Source: Kiritimatiellia bacterium (GTDB lineage Bacteria; Verrucomicrobiota; Kiritimatiellia; RFP12; UBA1067). From it: a DNA stretch of 64,000 bases. The first letter of the stretch is position 1, and every line of letters begins with the position of its first letter. Positions 5,388 through 61,016 of this stretch are shown in pieces. The stretch lies in contig JAQIBS010000107.1 of the NCBI GenBank assembly GCA_027858965.1, positions 35,617 to 99,616 of the forward strand. The letters run 5' to 3'. Under the pieces are notes generated by a model. That model saw only the letters and a program-made list of their open reading frames with translations, had not been told where the DNA came from and made no database searches. The position numbers and the translations under genes are program-made.

Positions 5388-5504
5388 TTAACAGGATATT
5401 ACTGCTCCAAGGATTATTTCTCACAGAGTCACAGAGAACACGGAGAGAAAACCACTAAAGATATTACTCTGTGAACTCTGTGCCTCTGTGAGAGATAAAA
5501 AACG
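5388..5504 (+). repeat. Left arm of a ~117-bp inverted repeat (CACAGAG-rich) flanking the two SGNH hydrolase genes
   Basis: About 95% identical to the reverse complement of 8174-8292. Confidence 0.8.
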
Positions 5505-5601
5505 TACAGAAAAAACACGAAAATGAATGATAGTAGTACGAAGGACACGAAGAAAAGAATGATTTACTCATTCAACTTTGTGATCTTCGTGGTGAGGATA
5601 T

Positions 5602-8047: not shown

Positions 8048-8173
8048 CGTAAGGTCCTCTTTGTATTGTTTATAATTGTGTAATAGTAAATACCTTTACG
8101 GGTTTAATGTCAAGTTTGTGATTTGCCCGTCCAACTTCATACGACTATCTTTCATATCTTTGTCCTGTTATGC

Positions 8174-8292
8174 ACGTTTTTTATCTCTCACAGAGGCACA
8201 GAGTTCACAGAGTAATATCTTTAGTGGTTTTCTCTCCGTGTTCTCTGTGACTCTGTGAGAAATAATTCTTGGAGCAGTAATATCCTGGAAAA
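8174..8292 (-). repeat. Right arm of the ~117-bp inverted repeat
   Basis: See the 5388-5504 entry. Confidence 0.8.
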
Positions 8293-11477: not shown

Positions 11478-11579
11478 CTGAAATCGTGAAACGACCACAG
11501 GTTCCCCTAGCTGCCTTGTATAGGGCTCATTTGGCCCATAAGGCTCATCGTTGCATGGTCCTCAGAGGAGAAAATTTGT

Positions 11580-16657: not shown

Positions 16658-16728
16658 AGTGCGCGAGTGCGAGAGTTCTAAAGTGCGAGAGTTCTAAAGT
16701 GCGAGAGAGCTAAAGTGTAATTTTTAAA
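16658..16728 (+). repeat. Three tandem units of AGTGCGAGAGTTCTAA (the GTTCTAAAGTG family); related copies lie at 25562-25600 (minus strand), 21448-21480 and 61418-61450
   Basis: Shared core CGAGAGTTCTAAAGTG found at two loci, with degenerate copies at two more. Confidence 0.7.
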
Positions 16729-16807
16729 CATTGGGCCCATATGGCTCATACGGCCCACAGCGCAGCCTGTCGCCGCAGGCGACTCTCTTCATACGGCCCA
16801 TAATAAA

Positions 16808-25451: not shown

Positions 25452-25532
25452 CTTTCGGGATCGCTATCGGCATCGGTATCGCTACTCGAACTGCATTTTC
25501 GATAGCGATGCCGATAGCGATCCCGATTCCGA
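25452..25532. repeat. Inverted hexamer-repeat hairpin (GGTATC/GGCATC arrays with ~28-bp arms) in the dctQ leader, downstream of gntR
   Basis: ATCGCTATCGGCATCGGTATCGCTACTCG ... CGATAGCGATGCCGATAGCGATCCCGAT; the two arms are reverse complements. Confidence 0.7.
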
Positions 25533-26342: not shown

Positions 26343-26615
26343 TGTTCTCCTTTGCGTTTTAATATATCAAAACCTCGGTTGTTATGTCAAATGCTTAAGT
26401 TCAAATTATTGTTAATGAGTATGCTTTGATTTAGATGGGTGATTTTGGATGTGTGCCGGATGTTTAAATTTGCACCCAATTTGCAATAAAACCCTTTATA
26501 TAAAGGGACTAAATGGTTATAAAACCCTCTGTTTGTGGTTTCGTTGGGGAGATAGTATTTATGTTCGATTTTTGATGCATCATCTGCTTTAGAGTAAGTA
26601 GGGTGATATTAGCCG

Positions 26616-26644
26616 TTGACAATTGCAATATGATATATCATAAT
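26616..26644 (+). promoter_or_regulatory. Sigma70-type promoter (TTGACA, 17 bp, CATAAT) with an embedded TGATATATCA palindrome, for LamG paralog 1
   Basis: Hexamers and spacing read from the sequence. A near-identical 31-bp block precedes LamG paralog 2. Confidence 0.6.
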
Positions 26645-26698
26645 GAAAAAACTTAATATAAAAGTAGATTGCTAATCTTTAAAGGCAAAGGAGATGTT

Positions 26699-32732: not shown

Positions 32733-32987
32733 AAACCAGCGAATGCTTTTTACAGAGCCCGTATTTGAATTTTGTATTTGAGGTGGCGGCAGTTGATGGT
32801 CAAAAATCAGGGGGTTCTGTCGAAAGATCAATGAAGATTACGGGTGTTGTGTGTGTTTATCCCTTTTAATATTGGGTTTTACGAAATATATGGGTTTTGT
32901 AGATTATAATATAATTTTGATTAAGTTACCGCTCTGGAGAGATCTCTCGTTGCCTTGAATACGATAAATAATATATTGGCTTATCGG

Positions 32988-33016
32988 TTGACAATTTCAA
33001 TATGATATATCATAAT
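32988..33016 (+). promoter_or_regulatory. Sigma70-type promoter (TTGACA, 17 bp, CATAAT) with an embedded TGATATATCA palindrome, for LamG paralog 2
   Basis: 30 of 31 bp identical to the 26616-26644 block. Confidence 0.6.
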
Positions 33017-33064
33017 GTTACGCATTAACTGTAAGAGTTTGTTATCCTTCAGGTAGGAGATGTT

Positions 33065-48475: not shown

Positions 48476-48495
48476 ATCGTTTTTCCTTGTTGTTG

Positions 48496-48628
48496 GCGTT
48501 ATGGGCCAGATGGGCCGAAGGGGCCTAATGTGAGTCGCCTTTGGCGACGAGGTGCGTAGCCGCTTATCTTCGCCGACGGCGAAGAGGGAAACACATAGGG
48601 CTCATGTGGCTCATCTGGCCCATAACGC
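48496..48628 (+). mobile_element. MITE-like element (133 bp) with ~21-bp terminal inverted repeats GCGTTATGGGCCAGATGGGCC / GGCTCATCTGGCCCATAACGC and internal hairpins
   Basis: The TIRs are reverse complements of each other. The whole element is about 93% identical to the reverse complement of 52001-52124. Confidence 0.7.
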
Positions 48629-48632
48629 TATC

Positions 48633-51281
48633 TTAATCCAGTATTTCCCGTACCTTAACGGCAAGATCCTGGATTGTAAAAGGCTTCTGAATGAAGTGCA
48701 CGCCCTTCTCGATAAGGCCCTGTTTGATGATGATGTCGGCCGTGTAGCCGGACATGAACATATGCTTGATTTCCGGGTGCAACAGGGTGAGATGGGTGGC
48801 TAGGTCCAGGCCGTTCATTTGGGGCATGACCACGTCGGTCAGCAGCAGACTGATCTCTTCGGTGTACTTTTCCGCCACCGCGATGGCCTCGTTCGGGAGG
48901 CCAGCCTTCAGAACACGGTAGCCCAGACCTTCCAGCATTTGCTTGCCCAGTTTCAGGATCGACGCTTCGTCCTCCACGAGCAGTATGGTTTCGTGGCCGC
49001 GGAGGGCCGCTTTCGCCGAGTCGGAGGTCGGTAGTTGCACGGCTTCGCCAAAGTGCCGGGGCAGGCAGAGTCTGAAGGTTGTCCCTTTTTCCGGTATGCT
49101 GGTGAGGTTGATGCAACCTTTGTTCTGCATGACGATGCCGTACACAGTGGCCAGGCCCAGCCCCGTGCCCTCGCCGACTTCCTTGGTGGTGTAGAATGGC
49201 TCGAAGATGTGTTTGATCGTCTCCGGATCCATGCCGCAGCCGGTGTCGCTGACAGAGATCGTCACGTATTCGCCGGGGACGAGATCCGTGTTCTTGGCGC
49301 AGAAGTTAGCGTCGGCGGTCAGGGTGCTGGTCTCGACCTTGAGCTTGCCCACCCCCGCGATGGCGTCGCGGGCGTTGACGCACAGGTTGGCCAGGATCTG
49401 GTCGATCTGCGCGGGATCCATCTTGACGGTTGTGTCTGCTGCCGTCGGCTGCCAGGTGAGGTCTATATTCTCGCCGATCAGCCGCCGCAGCATCATGAGC
49501 ATCCCGGACACGGTTTCGTTCAGGTCGAGCACTTTGGGCGTCATGGTCTGCTTGCGGGCGAACGCCAAGAGTTGGCGGGTCAGGTCGGCTGCACGGTTTG
49601 CGGCCTTCCGGCTCTCGGTCAGATCGTTGTGCAGCGCTGTCTCGGGATCGATCTCGTTCAGGGCCATATTCGTATAGCCGAGGATGACCTGGAGCATGTT
49701 GTTGAAATCGTGCGCCACGCCGCCGGCCAGTCGTCCGATGGATTCCATTTTTAGTGCCTGTTGCAACTGGGCTTCTGTTTTGCGCTGTTCGGTGATGTCT
49801 ATATACGCGCCAAGGATGCCGATGATTTGCCCTTGCGAGTTGCGCAGGGGAACTTTGCTCGTGAGAAGGATAATGGTTTCCCCTTCGGGTGTTGTCTGGG
49901 GTTCTTCTCTATCTAGAATCGTTTCGCCCTCGATGACCCGGAGGTCATCCGCGTTGTACATCTCCGCCAGATCTTTCCACTCCATATGGATATCATTTTT
50001 CCCAACGATTTCTTGCGGATTGGAAAAGCCCGCATCGAGCGCGAACGCTTTGTTGCATCCCAGATAAAGGAGATTGATGTCTTTCCAGAATACCCGGACG
50101 GGGATTGTGTTAAGGATGTCTTTGATGAGTTTCTGCGATTCGCGCAGCGCATCTTCGGCCTGTTTTTGTTCGGTGATGTCGCGCTTGACGGCCACGTAAT
50201 TGACGGTTTTGTCTGCGTCGTCGAGCACTGGAGAAATCGTTGCTTCTTCAGTATAGAAACTTCCGTCCTTGCGTTTGTTGACAAAGCGTCCTTTCCAGGT
50301 TTTGCCGTCGGTGAGGGTCTGCCACATATCGCGATAGAACGCCTCGTCCTGCTGACCGCTCTTCAAGATGCGTGGGTTTTTTCCTATTGCCTCTGTGCAC
50401 GAATAGCCCGACGTCTGTTTAAAGGCCGGGTTGGCGTACTGGATGGCTCCTTCCTCATCGGTGATGAATATGGTCTCGGCGGCCTGTTCGATGGCCTGCA
50501 TCAAACGCTCGTGTTTGGCCTCGGACTGCTTGTCATTAGTAATGTCGCGTAAGACATGCACCGCGCCGGTATATTTTCCGTCTGCATCCAGAATGGGATC
50601 TATAGTCACCATATACCAGAAATCACCAATCTGAAGTTCCTTGGTTTCGCGTTGCAAACTTTCTTTTGCTCGCACAAAGGGACAATCAGCGATCGGCCCG
50701 GTTATGCCATGCACGACTTCCCAGCACCGGGTTTCCCCCTCGCGAGCGGAGGATGGGAACAGCCGGTCCGCCTGCCTGTTCGAGCGCACGATCCGATGCT
50801 CCTCATCGAGTAGCCAGATTCCGTCGTTGGAGGCGTTAAATGTGCTGTGCCATTCCTTCGCTATCCGGGCCAGCGTCTCCTCGGACTGCTTGCGCTCGCG
50901 TCGCTCGACGGTTTCGTGCAGCCCGCGTTTGATCGCCGGGCCTAACCGTGTGAGATTGTCCTTCATGATGTAGTCGCTCGCGCCGGCTCGCATGGCGGTT
51001 ACCGCGACATCCTCGCCGATGGTGCCGGAGATGAGGATGATCGACAGGTCCAGCTCGCGCTCCTTTAGCAATTTTATCGCCTTTATCCCATCGAATTGCG
51101 GCAGGTTGTAGTCTACCAGAATGATATCCCAGCCTTGGTTGAGTTGGGCTAGATAATCGGCTTCCGTCTGCACTACCAAAATTTCGGGAGCAAAGCCTTC
51201 CGCCACCAATGTCTCGCGGATCATCTCGACATCCGCCGGATCATCTTCCAGATACAGGATACGCAACGGTTTTTTTTTCAT
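48633..51281 (-). CDS. Hybrid sensor histidine kinase: REC, PAS x3, HisKA, HATPase_c, REC
   Basis: N-terminal receiver (ILYLEDDPADVEM...DYNLPQFDG), H-box AGGVAHDFNNML, G-box SDTGCGMD and a C-terminal receiver (ILLVEDE...DVVMPQMNG). Confidence 0.85.
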   Translation of the reverse strand: MKKKPLRILYLEDDPADVEMIRETLVAEGFAPEILVVQTEADYLAQLNQGWDIILVDYNLPQFDGIKAIKLLKERELDLSIILISGTIGEDVAVTAMRAGASDYIMKDNLTRLGPAIKRGLHETVERRERKQSEETLARIAKEWHSTFNASNDGIWLLDEEHRIVRSNRQADRLFPSSAREGETRCWEVVHGITGPIADCPFVRAKESLQRETKELQIGDFWYMVTIDPILDADGKYTGAVHVLRDITNDKQSEAKHERLMQAIEQAAETIFITDEEGAIQYANPAFKQTSGYSCTEAIGKNPRILKSGQQDEAFYRDMWQTLTDGKTWKGRFVNKRKDGSFYTEEATISPVLDDADKTVNYVAVKRDITEQKQAEDALRESQKLIKDILNTIPVRVFWKDINLLYLGCNKAFALDAGFSNPQEIVGKNDIHMEWKDLAEMYNADDLRVIEGETILDREEPQTTPEGETIILLTSKVPLRNSQGQIIGILGAYIDITEQRKTEAQLQQALKMESIGRLAGGVAHDFNNMLQVILGYTNMALNEIDPETALHNDLTESRKAANRAADLTRQLLAFARKQTMTPKVLDLNETVSGMLMMLRRLIGENIDLTWQPTAADTTVKMDPAQIDQILANLCVNARDAIAGVGKLKVETSTLTADANFCAKNTDLVPGEYVTISVSDTGCGMDPETIKHIFEPFYTTKEVGEGTGLGLATVYGIVMQNKGCINLTSIPEKGTTFRLCLPRHFGEAVQLPTSDSAKAALRGHETILLVEDEASILKLGKQMLEGLGYRVLKAGLPNEAIAVAEKYTEEISLLLTDVVMPQMNGLDLATHLTLLHPEIKHMFMSGYTADIIIKQGLIEKGVHFIQKPFTIQDLAVKVREILD

Positions 51282-51295
51282 ACAGACTCTTCTTT

Positions 51296-51760
51296 CTAGT
51301 GCGTCAACGACGGGCTATTCGAATTGGTGAGCGGCGATTCATTCAATGCCACCCAGAAGATACCCAGCGACTTGACCGCATCGATAAACTGGTGAAAATC
51401 AACTGGCTTAACCACATAGGCGTTGACCCCGAGTTTGTAGCTGGTAATCAAATCTCGTTCCTCCCGGGACGACGTAAGCATGACAACGGGCAGCAGCTTC
51501 ATCTTCTCGTCGGCCTTGATTTGGCGTAACACATCGAGGCCGTTGACTTTGGGTAGTTTGAGATCTAGAATCACCACGGCAGGGTTGCAGTCGTTCCGCG
51601 TCTGGAAGTTTCCTCGGCGATACAGATAATCTAAGGCCTCTTCACCGTCACGGGCGACGTCGATCCCGTTAGATAACTGGTATTCTTTAAGGGCGGTAAG
51701 GGTCAGTTCGACATCCTTGGGATCGTCTTCAACTAGGAGAATCCGTTTTATTTTGTTCAT
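51296..51760 (-). CDS. Single-domain response regulator (CheY-like receiver)
   Basis: ILLVEDDPKDVEL...ILDLKLPKVNG...VVMLTSS...KP receiver motifs. Confidence 0.85.
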   Translation of the reverse strand: MNKIKRILLVEDDPKDVELTLTALKEYQLSNGIDVARDGEEALDYLYRRGNFQTRNDCNPAVVILDLKLPKVNGLDVLRQIKADEKMKLLPVVMLTSSREERDLITSYKLGVNAYVVKPVDFHQFIDAVKSLGIFWVALNESPLTNSNSPSLTH

Positions 51761-51940
51761 AATCGTCCTTCTTTCTGTGCGAGCTAAGGGCCAACGCGAA
51801 AACTTATAAATTTATTTCCTCGCAGACCCTAAGATGCAGAACCCCAGGTACGGGATATGGCTTTGTCCAGTGAAACACCCGAGAACGGATCATGCATATC
51901 AATTTGAAATGAATAATAATTTATGTATATAGAATTATGC
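51761..51940 (-). promoter_or_regulatory. Leader/promoter region of the RR/hybrid-HK unit; about 85% identical to the leader of the sensor gene at 59001-59175
   Basis: Duplicated block GATATGC(A/G)(T/C)GATCCGTTCTCGGGT...GGACAA(C/A)GCCATATCC...GCATCTTAGGGTCTGCG(C/A)GGAAATAAAT...CACAGAAAGAAGGACGA, placed directly before each start codon. Confidence 0.55.
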
Positions 51941-52000
51941 CTTTTGGCACAAAAAGAGTCAAGCCTATTTTTCCTGTTCAATAGACGCGCGTTGCTGATA

Positions 52001-52124
52001 GCGCTATGGGCCGTATGAGCCCTATGTGTTTCCCTCTTCGCCTTTGACGAAGACAAGCGACTACGCACCTCGTCGCCAAAGGCGACTTACATTAGGCCCC
52101 TTCGGCCCATCTGGCCCATAACGC
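52001..52124 (-). mobile_element. Second copy of the MITE-like element, inverted relative to 48496-48628
   Basis: The reverse complement aligns with the left copy. The TIR GCGCTATGGGCCGTATGAGCC ... GGCCCATCTGGCCCATAACGC is present. Confidence 0.7.
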
Positions 52125-52190
52125 TATCAGCAGAGAGCACCACAACTTACAATTTACAGAGCGCAGCGACTCCACTCGGATACCCTTTTT

Positions 52191-54164
52191 TCATAGAGAT
52201 TCGCCCGAGTCGTCTTTTGCAACCGAATCATGCGCTGTTATTCCCGCGTCTTCAAGCTGCGTGCACAAGTTCTTGATAATCAGCTTCAGCTCAGCCATGC
52301 GGTTTTCACGGCCCGCCATGACATTGACTACTTGTCGAAGTTCCTTCGTGCGCTCTAAAACTTCGCTCTCAAGAGTTGCTTGATGGCGCGCAAGAGCCTT
52401 TTCGGCCTGCTTACGGGCAGTGATGTCGCGCCCGATGCCTAATATGCCGAGCAGACTGCCGTCATGTCCGTAAATTGGCGTTTTAATGGTTTCGATCTGC
52501 TCAACATGGCCATCACTCAAAAAGGTTAGCTCTTCTTCGTTCATCGAGGGGCCGCCTTTTTTTATGGCGCGACGGTCATTTTCAAGGAAAAAATCCGCTG
52601 TATCTTTCGGCATGAAGTCATAGTCCGTGCGTCCGACGATGCTTTCTTTTTCAGCCCCAAAAAACTGTTCGAACCGCTGGTTACAAAGAAGATAGACCCC
52701 CTTGTCATCCTTCAACCACATCAGATCGGGACTGGTATCCACGACATCGCGTAGCATTTTACGGCTCTTATCGAGTTCCATTTCCGCTTGTTTTTGTTCC
52801 GTAATATCCTGATTGGTGCCGACCATACGTTCGGGATGACCGCCTTTATTGTAGAGAACATTCGCGTGAGCTCGGATCTGCCGGATCTCCCCATCAGGAC
52901 GAATGATGCGGAGGGAGGTGTCGTATTCATTTTTGCCTTTCACCGCCGCGCTGATTTCGGCATCCGCACTCTCCAGGTCGTCCGGGTGAACGCAATGCTT
53001 CCAGGCCTCATACGCGCCGCCGAATGCGTTCCTGGAGACCCCGTAGATTTCATACATTCGGTCGTCCCAGACCAATTGATTGGTGATCAAATTTAAATCC
53101 CACACCCCGATGCCGCCCGCCTGTGTTGCAATATTAAAGCGTTGGTTGGCGGTATGCAGCGCGACGGTATGTTTGCGGACCTCTCTTTTCAGGAAAATGA
53201 TCCAAATGAACACTCCTGCTGTAACCAACAGAAAAATGCAAATGGTAAATATGAAATAATTTCGTATTCGTGACCAGTCTGTGGAGTTGTCAAGCGGGCT
53301 GAGCCATTGGGTATGGATTCGGCGGTATTCACCGGAGGCATGGAGTTCCGCCAAACCGGTGTTGATCAGGTTTAAGAGTTCCGTCCGTCCGTGGGGCACG
53401 GCCAAGCAGTATTCGAACGAAACAAGACGCGGTTCGGCGACGTGCAGGTGGGTCCATTGGTTTTTCCTGATCCAGTAATTTCCCTGAATCATGGAACAGA
53501 TCGTGTAATCAACCTCTCCATTTTGAAGTAGAGCCAGCGCCTGTTGCGGATCAGTAACGGGAACCAGACGGGATGAAAGATTCTGTTTCAAGGCAAAGTC
53601 GTGTGTTATGTCGCCTTCAACAACAGCCACCCGGCGGTTTTTCATCGCATCGCGCGAGTCATACCGAGGGGAATCATTCCGGGCGAAAACGGCCTGGTGG
53701 TTCAAAAGGAGCGGTGAGGCAAAATCCAGCAGCTGTGCGCGGTTTTTTGAATAATACATGGTTGCGATGTCTAAGTGGCCTGAATTGACCTTTTGTCGCA
53801 CCTGATTCCAGGGCGTCAGCTCCAAAACAATATTTATCCCGGTCTGGCGCGATAGCGCTCGAATCAGATCGATATTAAATCCGGCTGGCCGGCCTTTTTT
53901 ATCGATAAACTCAAAGGGATAGAAGTCATGGTCACCCGCATAGACAAGAATGTTGGATCTTTCATTTTCATATCCAATGGTTTCCATCCACTTTTTGTGT
54001 ATTTGGTGGGCTGTTCCGTCGGGGTTAACAAGGGAGAAGGGCGGATAACACGGTTCCGCGGCGGAATGCAACGGCTTACCCTGCAAGGGAACGGTACAGA
54101 ATAAAAGCGAGAGCAGTATCACAGAATAAACCAGAACGGAGGGTTTTGGACTCTTTCTATTCAT
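52191..54164 (-). CDS. Kinase-less sensor: periplasmic family-3 solute-binding domain, TM, two PAS domains, and a C-terminal signalling-helix tail
   Basis: Signal peptide, an SBP_bac_3-like region, the TM helix FIFTICIFLLVTAGVFIWIIFL, PAS motifs, and termination after ERTKELRQVVNVMAGRENRMAELK with no HisKA or HATPase domain. Confidence 0.7.
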   Translation of the reverse strand: MNRKSPKPSVLVYSVILLSLLFCTVPLQGKPLHSAAEPCYPPFSLVNPDGTAHQIHKKWMETIGYENERSNILVYAGDHDFYPFEFIDKKGRPAGFNIDLIRALSRQTGINIVLELTPWNQVRQKVNSGHLDIATMYYSKNRAQLLDFASPLLLNHQAVFARNDSPRYDSRDAMKNRRVAVVEGDITHDFALKQNLSSRLVPVTDPQQALALLQNGEVDYTICSMIQGNYWIRKNQWTHLHVAEPRLVSFEYCLAVPHGRTELLNLINTGLAELHASGEYRRIHTQWLSPLDNSTDWSRIRNYFIFTICIFLLVTAGVFIWIIFLKREVRKHTVALHTANQRFNIATQAGGIGVWDLNLITNQLVWDDRMYEIYGVSRNAFGGAYEAWKHCVHPDDLESADAEISAAVKGKNEYDTSLRIIRPDGEIRQIRAHANVLYNKGGHPERMVGTNQDITEQKQAEMELDKSRKMLRDVVDTSPDLMWLKDDKGVYLLCNQRFEQFFGAEKESIVGRTDYDFMPKDTADFFLENDRRAIKKGGPSMNEEELTFLSDGHVEQIETIKTPIYGHDGSLLGILGIGRDITARKQAEKALARHQATLESEVLERTKELRQVVNVMAGRENRMAELKLIIKNLCTQLEDAGITAHDSVAKDDSGESL

Positions 54165-54177
54165 GATTAGACTCCTT

Positions 54178-56133
54178 CTAAATCGTTATTTTTTCCATGT
54201 TATTGGTTAGTTTTGGGAGTGAGAAATAGAAGGTGGACCCTTCGTTCAGCACACTCTCGGCCCAAGTGCGGCCGCCGTGACGTTGGATGATGCGCTGCAC
54301 ATTGGCCAGCCCGATGCCGGTGCCTTCAAATTGTTCCATGCTATGTAGACGCTGAAAAACCCCGAAAAGTTTTTCGACATACTTCATATCGAACCCGACG
54401 CCGTTATCACGGATGAAGAAGATGGTTTCGTGCTCATTCTGCGTATATCCCATTTGAATTTTCGCCTCGTCGCGCGGCCTGGTAAACTTTAGCGCGTTGG
54501 AGAACAGATTCGTCAGCACTGCATGCAGCAGAACCCGGTCAGCGTTGGCATGCGGCAGGGGAGCGAGGTCCCAAAGGATTCGCCGGCCCTGTATATCGGG
54601 GGTCAAGCCGTTGATAACCTTCTTCACCAGCGCATCGAGATTCACCGGCTTCCTGTGCAGCGCTTTGCGTCCCGTCCGCGAAAAGTCCAGTAGACCGTCA
54701 ATCAATCGGCCCATCTGCACGGCGGATTCGGAAATAAAGGTAAGATGCCGCCGGGCCTTTTCATCGAGATTCACTTGATCGTTATTTTGTAGCAACTCGG
54801 AAAATCCCGTGAGATGGCGGAGTGGCGCACGCAAATCGTGCGAGACCGAGTAAGCGAAAGCTTCCATCTCCTTGTTTGCGTCCTTAAGGGCTTGTGTGGT
54901 TCGCTCCAGACGGACTTGTGCAGACTGCAGATCTTCCAGCAGGTTGATCATCGCGCTGTTGAGTTGCTCCGCCTCGTTTGTTCGCGTGGTCAGTTCCGCG
55001 GTCCGCTCCTCAACGCGCTTCTCGAGCCGGGCATGCGCGGTCTCCAATTCTGCCTGCGTCCGTTTAAGCTCAGTGATGTCCACCCACTGGCATATAACGT
55101 TCGTCAGTTGTCCTTTGTCGTCCAGTATGGGGAACATTGAGACATCGATGGATAGATTGGGTGCGCCGTCGATGTCCCCGTCGTCGACATCTGCGGCCCG
55201 CCAGATCATACTGAAGCGACTGGACCTGTGTTTTTCGAAGACGGCCAGTACCTGGGGCGTGACCCCCTGGGCCTTCAAATTCATGTCTTTGAGAACATTG
55301 TATTTCCCCACGAGCTTCTCGTCGGTTAGGTTCAGTGTTTTCCGCAAAGAACTATTCGTCCTTATGATCGTTCCCTCCCTATCTGAGATCCACATGGAAA
55401 AGGGGCTCATGTTGATGACTGTATCGAGAAATGTGTTAGTGGTGTGGGCCTCTCTCTCCTGCTGTTTGCGTTGCTCAATTTCGTGCTCCAGGGTACGCGA
55501 GTGCGACTCCAGCTTCTCTATAAGGGGGGGCCCAAGTCGGGATAACAGCGCCACGCCGACCAGAATAACAAGCATGGCAAAGCCGAGTGCCGCCATTCCT
55601 GACCTAATGAATGGCGTGCGAATCTCCGCGATGTCGATCTTTGCCACAATCCCGAGGCCCAGTATGGCGACCGGCTCGTAGGCGGCCACTACCGTTTCGC
55701 CCCTATAATCGAGGCCTATGAGGGTTCCTGACATTCCCTTGAGTGCCCGACGCATGGGTTCGGCCAGGCTCGAAGCGAAATCCAATGGGGGAGGATGCCC
55801 GACACCGCCGTGTCGATGCCGGAGGATGAAATTGATGGATTCGCCATCGCGTCGTGCCAGTGTGAATTCGCCGGTCTCTCCGATGCCTGCAAAGCGTCGA
55901 TGCGCATCGACAATCTGACTTAATGTCGTCGACTGGGGGTTGTGGTCGGTAGCAATACTTCCATCTTCCCGCTTCGCATTGGAGTCATGTCGTGCGATCG
56001 CCTCAATCAAACATGCCTGGCTCTGCGCTGTGGCTATCAGCATCTGTCGATGGCTATTGAGATTATGGCGATAGAGAATGGTGGACATCACTATCAGAGA
56101 CATGGCGCAGGCTCCTACCATAGTGGCTGCCAT
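54178..56133 (-). CDS. Sensor histidine kinase (periplasmic sensor, TM, PAS, HisKA, HATPase_c)
   Basis: ERTAEL linker, H-box AYSVSHDLRAPLRHL, N/G boxes (IRDNGVGFD, GTGIGLANV). The start was set at the internal ATG at 56133 to avoid overlap with the upstream gene. Confidence 0.8.
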   Translation of the reverse strand: MAATMVGACAMSLIVMSTILYRHNLNSHRQMLIATAQSQACLIEAIARHDSNAKREDGSIATDHNPQSTTLSQIVDAHRRFAGIGETGEFTLARRDGESINFILRHRHGGVGHPPPLDFASSLAEPMRRALKGMSGTLIGLDYRGETVVAAYEPVAILGLGIVAKIDIAEIRTPFIRSGMAALGFAMLVILVGVALLSRLGPPLIEKLESHSRTLEHEIEQRKQQEREAHTTNTFLDTVINMSPFSMWISDREGTIIRTNSSLRKTLNLTDEKLVGKYNVLKDMNLKAQGVTPQVLAVFEKHRSSRFSMIWRAADVDDGDIDGAPNLSIDVSMFPILDDKGQLTNVICQWVDITELKRTQAELETAHARLEKRVEERTAELTTRTNEAEQLNSAMINLLEDLQSAQVRLERTTQALKDANKEMEAFAYSVSHDLRAPLRHLTGFSELLQNNDQVNLDEKARRHLTFISESAVQMGRLIDGLLDFSRTGRKALHRKPVNLDALVKKVINGLTPDIQGRRILWDLAPLPHANADRVLLHAVLTNLFSNALKFTRPRDEAKIQMGYTQNEHETIFFIRDNGVGFDMKYVEKLFGVFQRLHSMEQFEGTGIGLANVQRIIQRHGGRTWAESVLNEGSTFYFSLPKLTNNMEKITI

Positions 56134-56290
56134 AGCCACCAACCTGTCCCGCGCCCCCCTGTTCTTTGCAAAGGATTTCTTAGACAGGATTACAGGATTA
56201 ACCCGTCTCCGCCCGCAAGCGGGGCTACGCCGTGGCACAGCAGGATTATTATGCTTCGTTGTATTGCATTTATCTTTATAAATTTTTTTG

Positions 56291-58999
56291 CTATTCAAAA
56301 TCGCCCTCCGCACTCTCGACGGGCGCATGGCCGAGGTCGATGACCTGACTACGCAGACTCTCGTTTACCTTCTTCAGCTCTACCATACGATTTTCCCGCC
56401 CCGCCATGGCGCTAACAATCTTCTTCAGCTCGGCGGTCCGCCGAGCTGCCTTCTCTTCCGCCAGTTTCTTTTCGGTGATATCCATGCAGAAGACGATCAC
56501 CCCCGCGATGTTACCGGCTGCGTCGCGATGCGGAATCTTGTCGGTAATATACCAGTGCGTATCACCAGCAGCGGTGTGCAGGGGTTCAATAATCCCGAGC
56601 TTGGGCTGTCCTGATTGGATAACCTCGAGATCGTCTATGCGGAACCGTTCTGCCTCGTCGGGAAAGATCTCGGAGTCTGTCTTGCCTTCAATGTCGGCCA
56701 CGGTCATCCCGACAGATTCGGAGGCAGTCCGATTGACACGGAGGATTCGGCCTTCGGTATCTTTGAACCATATCATCGCACGCACCGAATCAAGGATGAC
56801 CTGTTGTTCAGAGCTTATCTTGGTAATCTCAGCGGTTCGTGCTGTCACCAGTTCCTCCAGATGGTCGCGGTACTTGATCAGTTCCGCTTCTGCCCGCTGG
56901 AGTTCAGAAAGCATTCTAGACTGTTGGATTGCACTGAAACTCAACGTTGAAATAATTGCAGAAAGTTTAGAGTAAAAGCGCATGCCGGCCTCCGCTTCTT
57001 GCCGACTGAATCTAGGGACTTTTTCGAATGCCGCAAGGTATTCCGTCTCATCGAATCCGTATTTCCGGGCCTGCTTCCGGAACAACTCGACATCGGGTGT
57101 TTCGTCAGTGTAAAAGAACTGACCGGTAAATACATTACCGACATGCTGGTCCCCTATCATAAGGGGTGTGACCATATCCCACATGTGGTTCTTGCAGTGG
57201 TATGCCTTAAAGGTTCCGAATGCTACCCCTTTGGTGAGGCAGGTGTCACTTTCAAGGCAGTTCTTGCATGATTCGGGATGAGCCCTGTGGAATTTCGTGC
57301 AGATATCCTGCCAGCCGACGGCCACTAAAATATTTCCGGAAAGGTCGAGTACAGCGCCCAACATGCCGGTCATCTGATAAAACTCTTCCATAATCGACTG
57401 CAGAACGTTGGTGTCAATAATGTCGGCAAGTTCAAGCGTACCGATATCGCCATCGGGTTCGATAATCGCTTTGAGCTTATTCCGGATGGTGGTTTCACTT
57501 TGGCGCAAGGCCTCCTCCGTCTGCTTGCGCTCGGTGATGTCGGAGTGCGTGCCTACCATGCGTAGCGGTTGGCCGGCGGCATCGCGGCTGACCACCATGC
57601 CGCGAGAGAGAATCCACTTGTAGCTGCCGTCTTTGCAGCGCATCCGAAATTCATTGACATAGATGGGAGTACGGTCGGCCAGATAGTTCTGAAAATTCGC
57701 CAGTGCACCCGCTAGATCGTCCGGATGGACAATTTTTTCCCACTCCTTAAACAGGTTCGCGATTTCGCTTTCGGCATACCCAAGTATTTCTTTCCAGCGT
57801 TTGGAAAAACGCACCGTTTTGGTTGGAATTTCCATATCCCATACACCATCACCGGCACCTTCGAGCGCAAACTTCCAGCGTTCCTCACTGGTCCGCAGGC
57901 GCGTTTCCTCCTTTTTCTGCCTGGCCAATTCACGCCGGGAAAACTTCAGCATTTGTTTTCGCCACAGCAGGCCGACGCTCAGCATGGCCGTTAGCAACAG
58001 AAGAGCGATGATGGCTGCGGTGGCCCAAGTCTCTTTGCGAAGCGGGCCGTAAATTTCCTTCTGATCAACCTTAGTCACCAAGAACCATGGTGTGCCCGGA
58101 ATCTTTCGCAACGCCGCTAAAACCGGGATGCCTCGGCAGTCTACCCCTTCCACTACGCCTTCCTTCCCCTGGACGGCCTTTGCTGCGGGCCGGTTCGGAT
58201 CGTTGATTGGAATCCGCAATGCCAGCGCAGCGTTGGTGCGATGGCGAAGATCATTTAGAAAAACCACCTCGTTGTCCTCGCGCCGGACGAGCAACGTTTT
58301 CGCCGTGGAGCTGGGTGTCGGCCAGCTCTGGATGAGGGGGTAGAGAAATCGCTGCGGATCTACAACCAGAAGCAACACGCCGTCCGCCGGTTGGTCTGCC
58401 TGCGAGTTGATACCGAATGGAATTAAGAAGGATAAATGGGTCAACTGGTTGGAATGGCAGTGATGCAGATCCTCAAAAACGACTTCCCTTGCATGCAACG
58501 CGGCTCCAACATGCTCGTCGATATGGGAGTCTTGCAGGAGGGAAGCATCAGCCGGCACCGCCAGTCGGGCTGCGCCGTGTGCGTCAAACAAGATCACTTG
58601 GCTGTAGTCATAATCCTGCTGAAATGTGGTCATCCACTTGAGCAACTCATCGCGATTGGCCGCGTCATCCGGTTCTGTGAAAAATTGCTGAATTTCATCC
58701 CAAACCATGTGCGTCTTGAAAATGATATTGGCATTGTTGTGCCGGTTCTTTATCCATCCCGCAATCTGGTTGACCTTCAAGTCCGCGATGGCAGCCAGCG
58801 TCTCCGTAGCGGTGCGATGGGTTTCGGCTTGTTGGCGTTTGTAATACACCCAGCAGGAGGGACCAATGGTCGCTATGCATATCAATGCGAGGGCGAAAAA
58901 GACACAGCGAAACCGGCGATCGACTACAGCGTTTGGAGTTGAGGATGGAGAAAGTGGCGATGCGTCTTGTGTCTTGGCAGGCGATTTGGCTTTCTTCAC
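56291..58999 (-). CDS. Kinase-less sensor: TM, Cache-like periplasmic domain, TM, PAS, PocR-like Cys-rich domain, PAS, and a C-terminal signalling-helix tail
   Basis: It ends after RRTAELKKIVSAMAGRENRMVELKK with no kinase core. The start was reassigned to the GTG at 58999, which follows the GAAAGAAGGACGA ribosome-binding site conserved with the RR gene leader. Confidence 0.65.
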   Translation of the reverse strand: MKKAKSPAKTQDASPLSPSSTPNAVVDRRFRCVFFALALICIATIGPSCWVYYKRQQAETHRTATETLAAIADLKVNQIAGWIKNRHNNANIIFKTHMVWDEIQQFFTEPDDAANRDELLKWMTTFQQDYDYSQVILFDAHGAARLAVPADASLLQDSHIDEHVGAALHAREVVFEDLHHCHSNQLTHLSFLIPFGINSQADQPADGVLLLVVDPQRFLYPLIQSWPTPSSTAKTLLVRREDNEVVFLNDLRHRTNAALALRIPINDPNRPAAKAVQGKEGVVEGVDCRGIPVLAALRKIPGTPWFLVTKVDQKEIYGPLRKETWATAAIIALLLLTAMLSVGLLWRKQMLKFSRRELARQKKEETRLRTSEERWKFALEGAGDGVWDMEIPTKTVRFSKRWKEILGYAESEIANLFKEWEKIVHPDDLAGALANFQNYLADRTPIYVNEFRMRCKDGSYKWILSRGMVVSRDAAGQPLRMVGTHSDITERKQTEEALRQSETTIRNKLKAIIEPDGDIGTLELADIIDTNVLQSIMEEFYQMTGMLGAVLDLSGNILVAVGWQDICTKFHRAHPESCKNCLESDTCLTKGVAFGTFKAYHCKNHMWDMVTPLMIGDQHVGNVFTGQFFYTDETPDVELFRKQARKYGFDETEYLAAFEKVPRFSRQEAEAGMRFYSKLSAIISTLSFSAIQQSRMLSELQRAEAELIKYRDHLEELVTARTAEITKISSEQQVILDSVRAMIWFKDTEGRILRVNRTASESVGMTVADIEGKTDSEIFPDEAERFRIDDLEVIQSGQPKLGIIEPLHTAAGDTHWYITDKIPHRDAAGNIAGVIVFCMDITEKKLAEEKAARRTAELKKIVSAMAGRENRMVELKKVNESLRSQVIDLGHAPVESAEGDFE

Positions 59000-59000
59000 T

Positions 59001-59175
59001 TCGTCCTTCTTTCTGTGTGAATTTATTTCCGCGCAGACCCTAAGATGCGGTAACCCAAGTATAGGATATGGCGTTGTCCAGAGAAATACCCGAGAACGGA
59101 TCGCGCATATCAATCTGACGTAAGCACTGATTTATCTATAAAATAGTTTGCCTCTCGGCATAAAAATAGTCAAGT
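59001..59175 (-). promoter_or_regulatory. Leader/promoter of the first sensor gene; duplicate of 51761-51940
   Basis: See the 51761-51940 entry. Confidence 0.55.
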
Positions 59176-59484
59176 CATTTATTCTGAAAACGGCAGTTGA
59201 AATCGTTAAAGACGTTGTAAGTGGAGCCAAAAATGGCTCCCGCGCTAACTTTATAGAGGGTTGCCAGTGATAATGTAGCCCAAGCATCCTGCTTGGCTTA
59301 TTATTGAGGCAAGCCGGTCTTCGCCCTTTGGGCTACGCCCCGACACGGCAGGATGCTTGCATTACTGTCCCCCGTACTCGCACACGTACTCCTGCACTCA
59401 AATCTCTTTTCCCGCTATCCTCATCAGGTTTAACCGCAGCCTCAATTTCGGTTCTTCCGACTTTTTAATGGGTGAATCATCGCT

Positions 59485-59582
59485 ACTCGGTATCGGGATC
59501 GCTATCGCTATCGGACACAGCAACCATCGGATTAAATTCGATACCGATGCCGATACCGATTGCGATATCGACAACAAAGACC
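59485..59582. repeat. Inverted GGTATC/GATACC hexamer arrays (potential long hairpin) in the divergent region between the sensor gene and purM
   Basis: CGGTATCGGGATCGCTATCGCTATCGG ... CGATACCGATGCCGATACCGATTGCGATATCG. Confidence 0.65.
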
Positions 59583-60967: not shown

Positions 60968-61016
60968 CAATCGGTATCGGCATCGGTATCGGTATCGGTA
61001 TCGGTATCGGCATCGC
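60968..61016. repeat. Tandem hexamer array (GGTATC/GGCATC), about 7 units
   Basis: TCGGTATCGGCATCGGTATCGGTATCGGTATCGGTATCGGCATCG. Confidence 0.8.

Follow-up and report, generated by a model that had tools for sequence, protein, structure and literature searches.

A promoter-and-leader block in two copies probably heads both units of one signalling locus in a Kiritimatiellae genome

Two copies of a putative promoter-leader block

The 64-kb stretch of contig JAQIBS010000107.1 from a Kiritimatiellia bacterium that was analysed here as a whole (the window) carries a two-component signalling locus in which one sequence block occurs twice, once upstream of the first sensor gene (copy B, 59184-59000) and once upstream of the response regulator (RR) gene (copy A, 51973-51761), with all genes of the locus and both copies on the minus strand. 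The block is best explained, with a probability that we put at about 0.62, as a promoter-plus-leader cassette whose two copies head two units of the same locus. Copy B would drive a unit of a sensor, a histidine kinase and an SBP-PAS sensor (unit B), and copy A would drive a unit of the RR and a hybrid kinase (unit A), each copy supplying an A-rich tract, a sigma-70-type promoter, a 5' untranslated region (5' UTR), a strong ribosome-binding site and a start codon. The element is thus probably a real but ordinary regulatory signal. Given that the same promoter and the same 73-nt core are found in front of both units, any factor acting there would act on both of them, and such a common input would keep the sensors and the relay proteins co-expressed despite their presumably separate transcripts. 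From this arrangement we infer co-control of the two ends of the locus, as had been proposed by an earlier reading of the DNA from its letters (the sequence-only reading).

A repeat search of the window reported the block as a single two-copy family (51809-51973 and 59020-59184; 165 nt with 79% ungapped identity), and a blastn comparison of copy A with copy B gave E = 5e-36. Global alignment of 51761-51973 with 59000-59184 resulted in 80.5% identity (149/185) with one 27-nt gap, copy A being the longer, and an ungapped 98-nt core (51809-51906 and 59020-59117) reached 86.7%. The sequence-only reading had put the identity at about 85%, a value that suits the core but is too high for the whole element. 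The stretches it compared gave 82.1% (124/151) in a gapped alignment and were slightly out of register, as copy A reaches to about 51973, not 51940, to match position 59184 of copy B. Its claim of a ribosome-binding site shared by both start codons was borne out. The block CACAGAAAGAAGGAC is present exactly twice in the window, once in each copy (Table 1), with 0.19 occurrences expected by chance, and it lies 4-5 bases from the start codon (ATG at 51760 and GTG at 58999).

The motif CTTGACT-N17-CAnAnT, together with an A-rich tract upstream of it, is invariant in all five promoter-bearing copies, which come from three lineages, and it stands only at the heads of sensor or RR units. This agrees with the earlier proposal of a shared promoter or 5'-UTR element, and the block is read here as both promoter and 5' UTR. 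Copy A (TTGACT-17-CATAAT) matched the sigma-70 consensus at 10/12 positions in a promoter scan and copy B (TTGACT-17-CAAACT) at 8/12 by inspection and regular expression, and the homologues carry TTGACT-17-CACAAT. Similarity stops abruptly just upstream of the A-tract, with no alignment possible beyond it. A palindrome, TGCC-N4-GGCA, lies in the promoter spacer of both window copies and in only three of the five copies overall. Sigma-54, extracytoplasmic-function (ECF) and sigma-32-like promoters inside the core were considered and rejected because inspection showed unsuitable spacings. A further sigma-70 promoter closer to the gene was likewise rejected, its spacing being poor on inspection and two of the related leaders described below (L009 and L011R) leaving no room for it. 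A second duplicated promoter-like block was found at 26609-26645 and 32981-33017 (GTTGACAATT(G/T)CAATATGATATATCATAATG, 92% identical, TTGACA-N17-CATAAT). It precedes two paralogous genes (about 765 amino acids each) by about 50 nt and belongs to a tandem duplication of about 6.4 kb (families D2, D15 and D16). That TTGACA-N17-CATAAT also heads this unrelated paralogous pair indicates that the hexamer pair recurs as a promoter-like signal in the organism.

Downstream of the predicted promoters, the 5' UTRs would be about 140-170 nt in length. A poorly conserved stretch of about 35 nt separates promoter and core in each copy, and the linker of copy A holds a 27-nt extra segment (approximately 51808-51782) that is specific to the RR type of leader. 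The sequence-only reading had described this segment as an insertion of about 30 bp in the first copy. The size was near the measured one, but an insertion is not supported; the segment is an old feature of RR-type leaders, being present in the related locus L021 and partly in L011.

One gene start was also corrected. The sequence-only reading had moved the start of the sensor gene to the GTG at 58999-58997, and this correction holds: the corresponding NCBI protein (P0121) has 902 amino acids and begins with MKKAKS, and the orthologues P0122 and P0123 begin with MTKAKP and MKKAKS at the homologous GTG behind a ribosome-binding block of the CACAGAAAGAAGGAC type. The JGI gene call for the same sensor in a close strain (L001) is also 902 amino acids long. 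The 38 extra codons of the mechanically called open reading frame (up to 59113) fall within the leader.

Table 1. Features of the signalling locus in minus-strand order, from leader B to the palindrome behind the hybrid kinase gene; domain assignments are from Pfam
Feature	Coordinates	Strand	Details
Predicted copy B promoter	59145-59186	minus	A-rich tract 59186-59175; -35 TTGACT 59173-59168; 17-nt spacer; -10 CAAACT 59150-59145; from regular expression CTTGACT-N17-CAnAnT (first base 59174) and alignment with four homologues
Presumed copy B 5' UTR	59000-59144	minus	variable 5' part; 73-nt core 59117-59045; linker 59044-59018; CACAGAAAGAAGGAC 59017-59003
Sensor gene	56291-58999	minus	first gene of unit B; dCache-PAS-PocR-PAS, without kinase domain; 902 amino acids
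Histidine kinase gene	54178-56328	minus	second gene of unit B; PAS-HisKA-HATPase_c
SBP-PAS sensor gene	52191-54164	minus	last gene of unit B; SBP_bac_3-PAS-PAS, without kinase domain
127-nt palindromic repeat	52006-52132		between unit B and promoter A; fold -76 kcal/mol, z = -7.6
Predicted copy A promoter	51934-51975	minus	A-rich tract; -35 TTGACT 51962-51957; 17-nt spacer; -10 CATAAT 51939-51934; from promoter scan (10/12), regular expression and alignments
Presumed copy A 5' UTR	51761-51933	minus	variable part; 73-nt core 51906-51834; linker; CACAGAAAGAAGGAC 51779-51765
RR gene	51296-51760	minus	first gene of unit A; single-domain Response_reg; 154 amino acids; ATG at 51760
Hybrid histidine kinase gene	48633-51281	minus	second gene of unit A; REC-PAS x3-HisKA-HATPase_c-REC; 882 amino acids
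127-nt palindromic repeat, second copy	48488-48614		19 nt past the hybrid kinase stop; fold -66.7 kcal/mol, z = -7.4

Conservation in related loci and age of the duplication

Loci coding close homologues of the RR and the sensor were fetched (23) and searched with a profile of the leader. Matches occurred only directly upstream of the first sensor or RR gene, in three lineages besides the window (L011; L009/L010; L021), and the profile found no element in the more distant loci L012-L020, L022 and L023. The L011 locus is syntenic with that of the window, including a divergent AIR-synthase-like gene, and it carries one leader upstream of the orthologous sensor (L011:1975-2163) and a shorter, degenerate one upstream of the RR (L011:9862-10003). 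A single leader (L009 and L010:6279-6449) precedes a PocR-PAS-kinase gene that is directly followed by RR and hybrid kinase, forming one operon with one leader, and the L021 leader (L021:1-157), upstream of the RR, is cut off by the contig end. In what follows, winA and winB denote the window copies A and B, L011s and L009s the sensor-side leaders, and L011R the RR-side leader of L011. In several relatives the RR gene overlaps the kinase gene before it and lacks a separate leader; the second copy thus accompanies an RR/hybrid-kinase unit that inserted genes have parted from the first sensor.

The six-sequence alignment showed a near-invariant promoter, a drop in conservation in roughly the first 35 nt of the presumed transcript, a rise in the core, a linker broken by indels and an invariant ribosome-binding block. 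Both L009s and L011R lack everything between two CTTAG repeats, indicating that the linker is dispensable. From promoter to start codon, the winB element is 74% identical to its L011 orthologue, whereas four-fold degenerate sites in the neighbouring RR and sensor genes are only 52-53% identical in the same comparison, and this difference points to purifying selection on the leader.

The similarity of the two copies could also reflect a recent duplication or gene conversion without selection, the copies having lacked the time to diverge. The 87% identity of A and B in the 98-nt core is above the 74% found overall between winB and L011s, and the RR-side copy of L011 is far more degenerate than that of the window, so some homogenisation in the window lineage is possible. 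However, the overall identity of A and B (77%) equals that between lineages (winB-L009s 77%, winA-L009s 76%). Moreover, each copy has type-specific features that recur elsewhere: the RR-type 3' tail of copy A, GGCCCTTAGCTCGCACAG, is common to the RR leaders of L021 and L011, and the sensor-type positions CTATA and TTAC are common to winB and L011s. Type-specific features shared across lineages indicate that the element stood at both sites before the lineages split, which makes the duplication an old one whose two copies were both retained. We consider a recent, unselected origin of the similarity improbable.

A second alternative is that the block is a dispersed or mobile repeat, either resembling a miniature inverted-repeat transposable element (MITE) or left as a recombination scar, which has no regulatory role and came to lie before both genes by chance. 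The genome does hold other dispersed repeats, including the 127-nt palindrome flanking unit A, and sequence identity with the close strain L001 sets in at 59189, a few bases at most from the point where copy B begins on its upstream side. Nevertheless, neither the repeat search nor an nhmmer search with the leader profile detected a third copy in the window, and when three conserved blocks were searched across it with 2-3 mismatches only the two copies or chance-level matches were returned. All homologues share the same orientation and run straight into the ribosome-binding site and start codon of a gene for a sensor or an RR. The block shows neither terminal inverted repeats nor target-site duplications, no inverted repeat lies within it or bounds it, and the leader is conserved above the neutral level in comparison with L011. 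Beyond the window, the plasmid and phage collections contained no match to the element. The exact-core pattern CCGTTCTCGG-N30-55-TTAGGGTCTGC gave three matches in a genome collection (596 Gb) and three in a metagenome collection, all of which proved to be chance matches on alignment. These exact-core scans, which did not return the copies of the window itself and bear on the spread of the core and not on copy number in the source genome, show that the core is not widespread. In the sequences examined the block is not one more dispersed repeat, the outcome that the sequence-only reading had named as fatal to it, and an origin as a mobile repeat is very unlikely.

The leader might instead encode a small regulatory peptide, since a 22-codon upstream open reading frame (MHDPFSGVSLDKAISRTWGSAS in A and MRDPFSGISLDNAISYTWVTAS in B) runs in the same register in both window copies with an ATG and a shared TAG stop. 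By contrast, the ATG is AGG in L011s and the stop is CAG in L009s, and the frame has no Shine-Dalgarno sequence, unlike the real genes with their strong one. Copies A and B differ within it at 11 nucleotides, which are split 3/3/5 over the codon positions, change 6 of the 22 residues and give no coding signature. A leader peptide therefore appears extremely unlikely, and upstream open reading frames in two frames were rejected as not conserved.

Primary sequence and folding of the leader

The sequence-only reading had suggested a structured leader, and a structured cis-regulatory RNA (a riboswitch, thermometer or attenuator) controlling transcription or translation of both units would be in keeping with a long conserved 5' UTR before signalling genes. 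A three-helix model obtained with RNAalifold has 92% of its cells paired in five sequences, compared with 25-50% when the partners are slid. Two pairs of this model change on both sides, and one A-U to G-C compensatory change distinguishes copy A from copy B (ATGCA/TGCAT and ATGCG/CGCAT). However, the model was derived from the sequences on which it was tested, is rich in G-U pairs, and its shuffled columns already pair at 89.7%. It also lies 7-15 kcal/mol above the minimum free energy of each sequence. RNAalifold returned the three-helix fold from four sequences with only -9.2 kcal/mol and a different fold from five, the covariation term changing from -0.94 to +0.28; a covariation test on five or six sequences has little power.

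Folding energies and database searches pointed the same way. The full leaders fold with z = -0.93 and +0.46, and the cores of the five homologues all gave z values between -0.95 and +0.31. Rfam at gathering thresholds gave no match over the whole window, and both leaders searched at E <= 10 hit only unrelated families at chance level (E >= 0.8), the best cis-regulatory family being no better than E = 3.8. The ribosome-binding site is predicted to be unpaired (P = 0.84-0.88) in four of six leaders and is more open than in 97-100% of controls with shuffled upstream sequence, and where it is paired the partners differ. The leaders contain neither a terminator hairpin with a U-run nor a conserved anti-Shine-Dalgarno sequence, and the 50 nt between core and ribosome-binding site are deleted in L009 and L011R. 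An anti-Shine-Dalgarno candidate, UCCGUUCU pairing with AGAAGGA, was rejected because it appeared only in the winA ensemble and the site is open in four of the six leaders. Taken together, these predictions leave an RNA structure unsupported, and control by a structured leader seems rather unlikely. Nor does the leader resemble a switch that senses a ligand or folds by itself.

Returning to the promoter-plus-leader reading, it is most likely the primary sequence of the core that is conserved and not a fold, which would make the core a likely binding site for a trans-acting factor. Such a factor could be a protein or a small RNA acting on the mRNA, or the core could be a DNA operator located past the transcription start. 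In the small-RNA version, GAUCCGUUCUCGGGU or CUGGACAAnGCCAUAUCC would be candidate pairing segments. Terminal inverted repeats or short repeated operator-like motifs conserved across the homologues were not found inside the core. A more specific proposal, which we offer tentatively, is that the 73-nt core (51906-51834 and 59117-59045) represents an undescribed, lineage-specific cis-regulatory signal read by a dedicated RNA- or DNA-binding factor or a small RNA, giving feedback or feed-forward control of the multi-sensor phosphorelay in Kiritimatiellae. If the core is such a dedicated signal, it may identify a small regulon at other genomic sites.

Several points weigh against the reading of the block as a promoter-plus-leader cassette. 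The -10 element of copy B (CAAACT) is weak, matching the consensus at only 3/6 positions, and the generic promoter scan did not list the copy B promoter. Promoter activity and the transcription starts, near 59138 (B) and 51927 (A), are predictions, and a literature search for transcription-start mapping in Kiritimatiellae gave nothing useful. The evidence for constraint depends on a single comparison, that with L011, because the comparison with L009 is uninformative, the leader (77%) being no more conserved there than four-fold degenerate sites (66-78%). None of the genes of the locus codes for a regulator that binds DNA or RNA, leaving the proposed trans-factor without a candidate there. Finally, the six leader sequences include one degenerate and one truncated copy, so a weak or alternative RNA structure is possible, and the three-helix model does pair 92% of the cells as described above.

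To our knowledge, almost nothing is known about promoters and post-transcriptional control in Kiritimatiellae and related Planctomycetes-Verrucomicrobia-Chlamydiae (PVC) bacteria. The locus provides an example, backed by comparison with relatives, of a predicted sigma-70-type promoter (TTGACT-N17-CAnAAT preceded by an A-tract) in Kiritimatiellae, as well as one corrected gene start. A long leader that has long been kept in two copies also represents a testable handle on the co-regulation of a multi-sensor two-component network, and its importance hinges on whether the conserved core binds a specific factor.

The locus and its relation to known arrangements

The two 127-nt palindromes form an inverted-repeat pair (I2) in opposite orientation with 91% complementarity. 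They bracket exactly leader A, the RR gene and the hybrid kinase gene, each lying just past the last gene of a unit. An nhmmer search of the window found only these two full copies, with fragments at 11518-11557 and 16728-16767. The palindrome may be a repetitive extragenic palindromic (REP) or MITE-like element and, judging from its predicted fold, a possible terminator or insulator hairpin. A strongly folding palindrome after each unit fits two separately terminated transcripts, and we infer separate transcription of the two units. This is qualified by the palindromes being insertions specific to the species, since L011 lacks them and L001 has none on the 3' side of the locus.

Other repeats were also seen in the window. 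A 120-nt inverted repeat (I1, 5392-5511 and 8168-8287, 98% complementary) flanks a 2.66-kb segment, which may represent an insertion sequence or an invertible segment. Runs of 6-nt units (GATACC, GATGCC, GATAGC) occur at 59475-59573, between leader B and the AIR-synthase-like gene, at 60971-61015, just past that gene and inverted, and at 25486-25532 (D10, I11-I13). They gave weak miRNA-like noise in Rfam.

The RR is 100% identical to an NCBI protein named 'MAG: response regulator [Kiritimatiellae bacterium]', MAG standing for metagenome-assembled genome, and the sensor at 56291-58999 is likewise 100% identical to an NCBI protein from a Kiritimatiellae bacterium MAG. The RR belongs to a very large and tightly conserved family (7999 of 8000 scored candidates at E <= 1e-20); among the RR matches listed, identities were 71-87%, and many came from Verrucomicrobiota or Kiritimatiellae metagenomes. 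The pair of RR and hybrid kinase genes is kept in all related loci examined. In the fetched loci a REC-containing gene comes after the RR, in most cases a hybrid kinase of the REC-HisKA-HATPase-REC type, and the sensor kinases ahead of the RR vary, an arrangement suggestive of a conserved relay hub whose inputs can be exchanged. Both large sensors of the window (56291-58999 and 52191-54164) have neither a kinase nor another output domain. The L009 orthologue of the former is a complete PocR-PAS-histidine kinase of 1185 amino acids. The form without a kinase has a conserved C-terminal tail, ...MAGRENRM.ELK..., in the window as well as in L011, and because L011 has this tail too the form looks genuine rather than the result of a frameshift. 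The JGI gene call for the kinase gene at 54178-56328 has a slightly later start, giving 686 amino acids.

The contig of the close strain L001 (JGI 3300051640) matches the signalling locus with 97-99.96% identity, only over window positions 48638-59189. The limits of identity are the upstream edge of leader B (59189) and the hybrid kinase stop (48638), and both flanks are unrelated, with RecQ-NusA-IF2 downstream where the window has the palindrome and a GH123-like gene. The upstream break lies 53 nt from the end of the L001 contig and may be an assembly effect. Within the SBP-PAS sensor gene the window has 124 nt (53710-53833) where L001 has 10, a net difference of 114 nt.

Operon-internal or duplicated promoters are a general and well-known arrangement in two-component loci, and the element described here is a lineage-restricted example of this familiar arrangement, not a new class of element. 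Similar to internal promoters of two-component systems, a second promoter would let RR and kinase be expressed independently of the upstream sensor genes, and the single operon of L009 and the separate RR unit of L011 and the window represent the two states of the arrangement. Unlike the usual internal promoters, that of the window is a paralogue of the operon's own promoter, comes with the whole leader and ribosome-binding site, and belongs to a pair of copies that were both retained across lineages. The long conserved 5' UTR repeated before linked units resembles regulon-type leaders found before several operons of a genome, such as the riboswitch and T-box leaders of Rfam. The block differs from riboswitch and T-box leaders in having no Rfam match, conserved fold, covariation or expression platform, with its ribosome-binding site predicted to be open. 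In comparison with REP and MITE-like repeats, the 127-nt palindromes of the locus appear to be such elements (z about -7.5, after both units). The promoter-leader block, by contrast, is not palindromic, is not dispersed in the window, folds no better than shuffled sequences and is tied to gene starts in every lineage.

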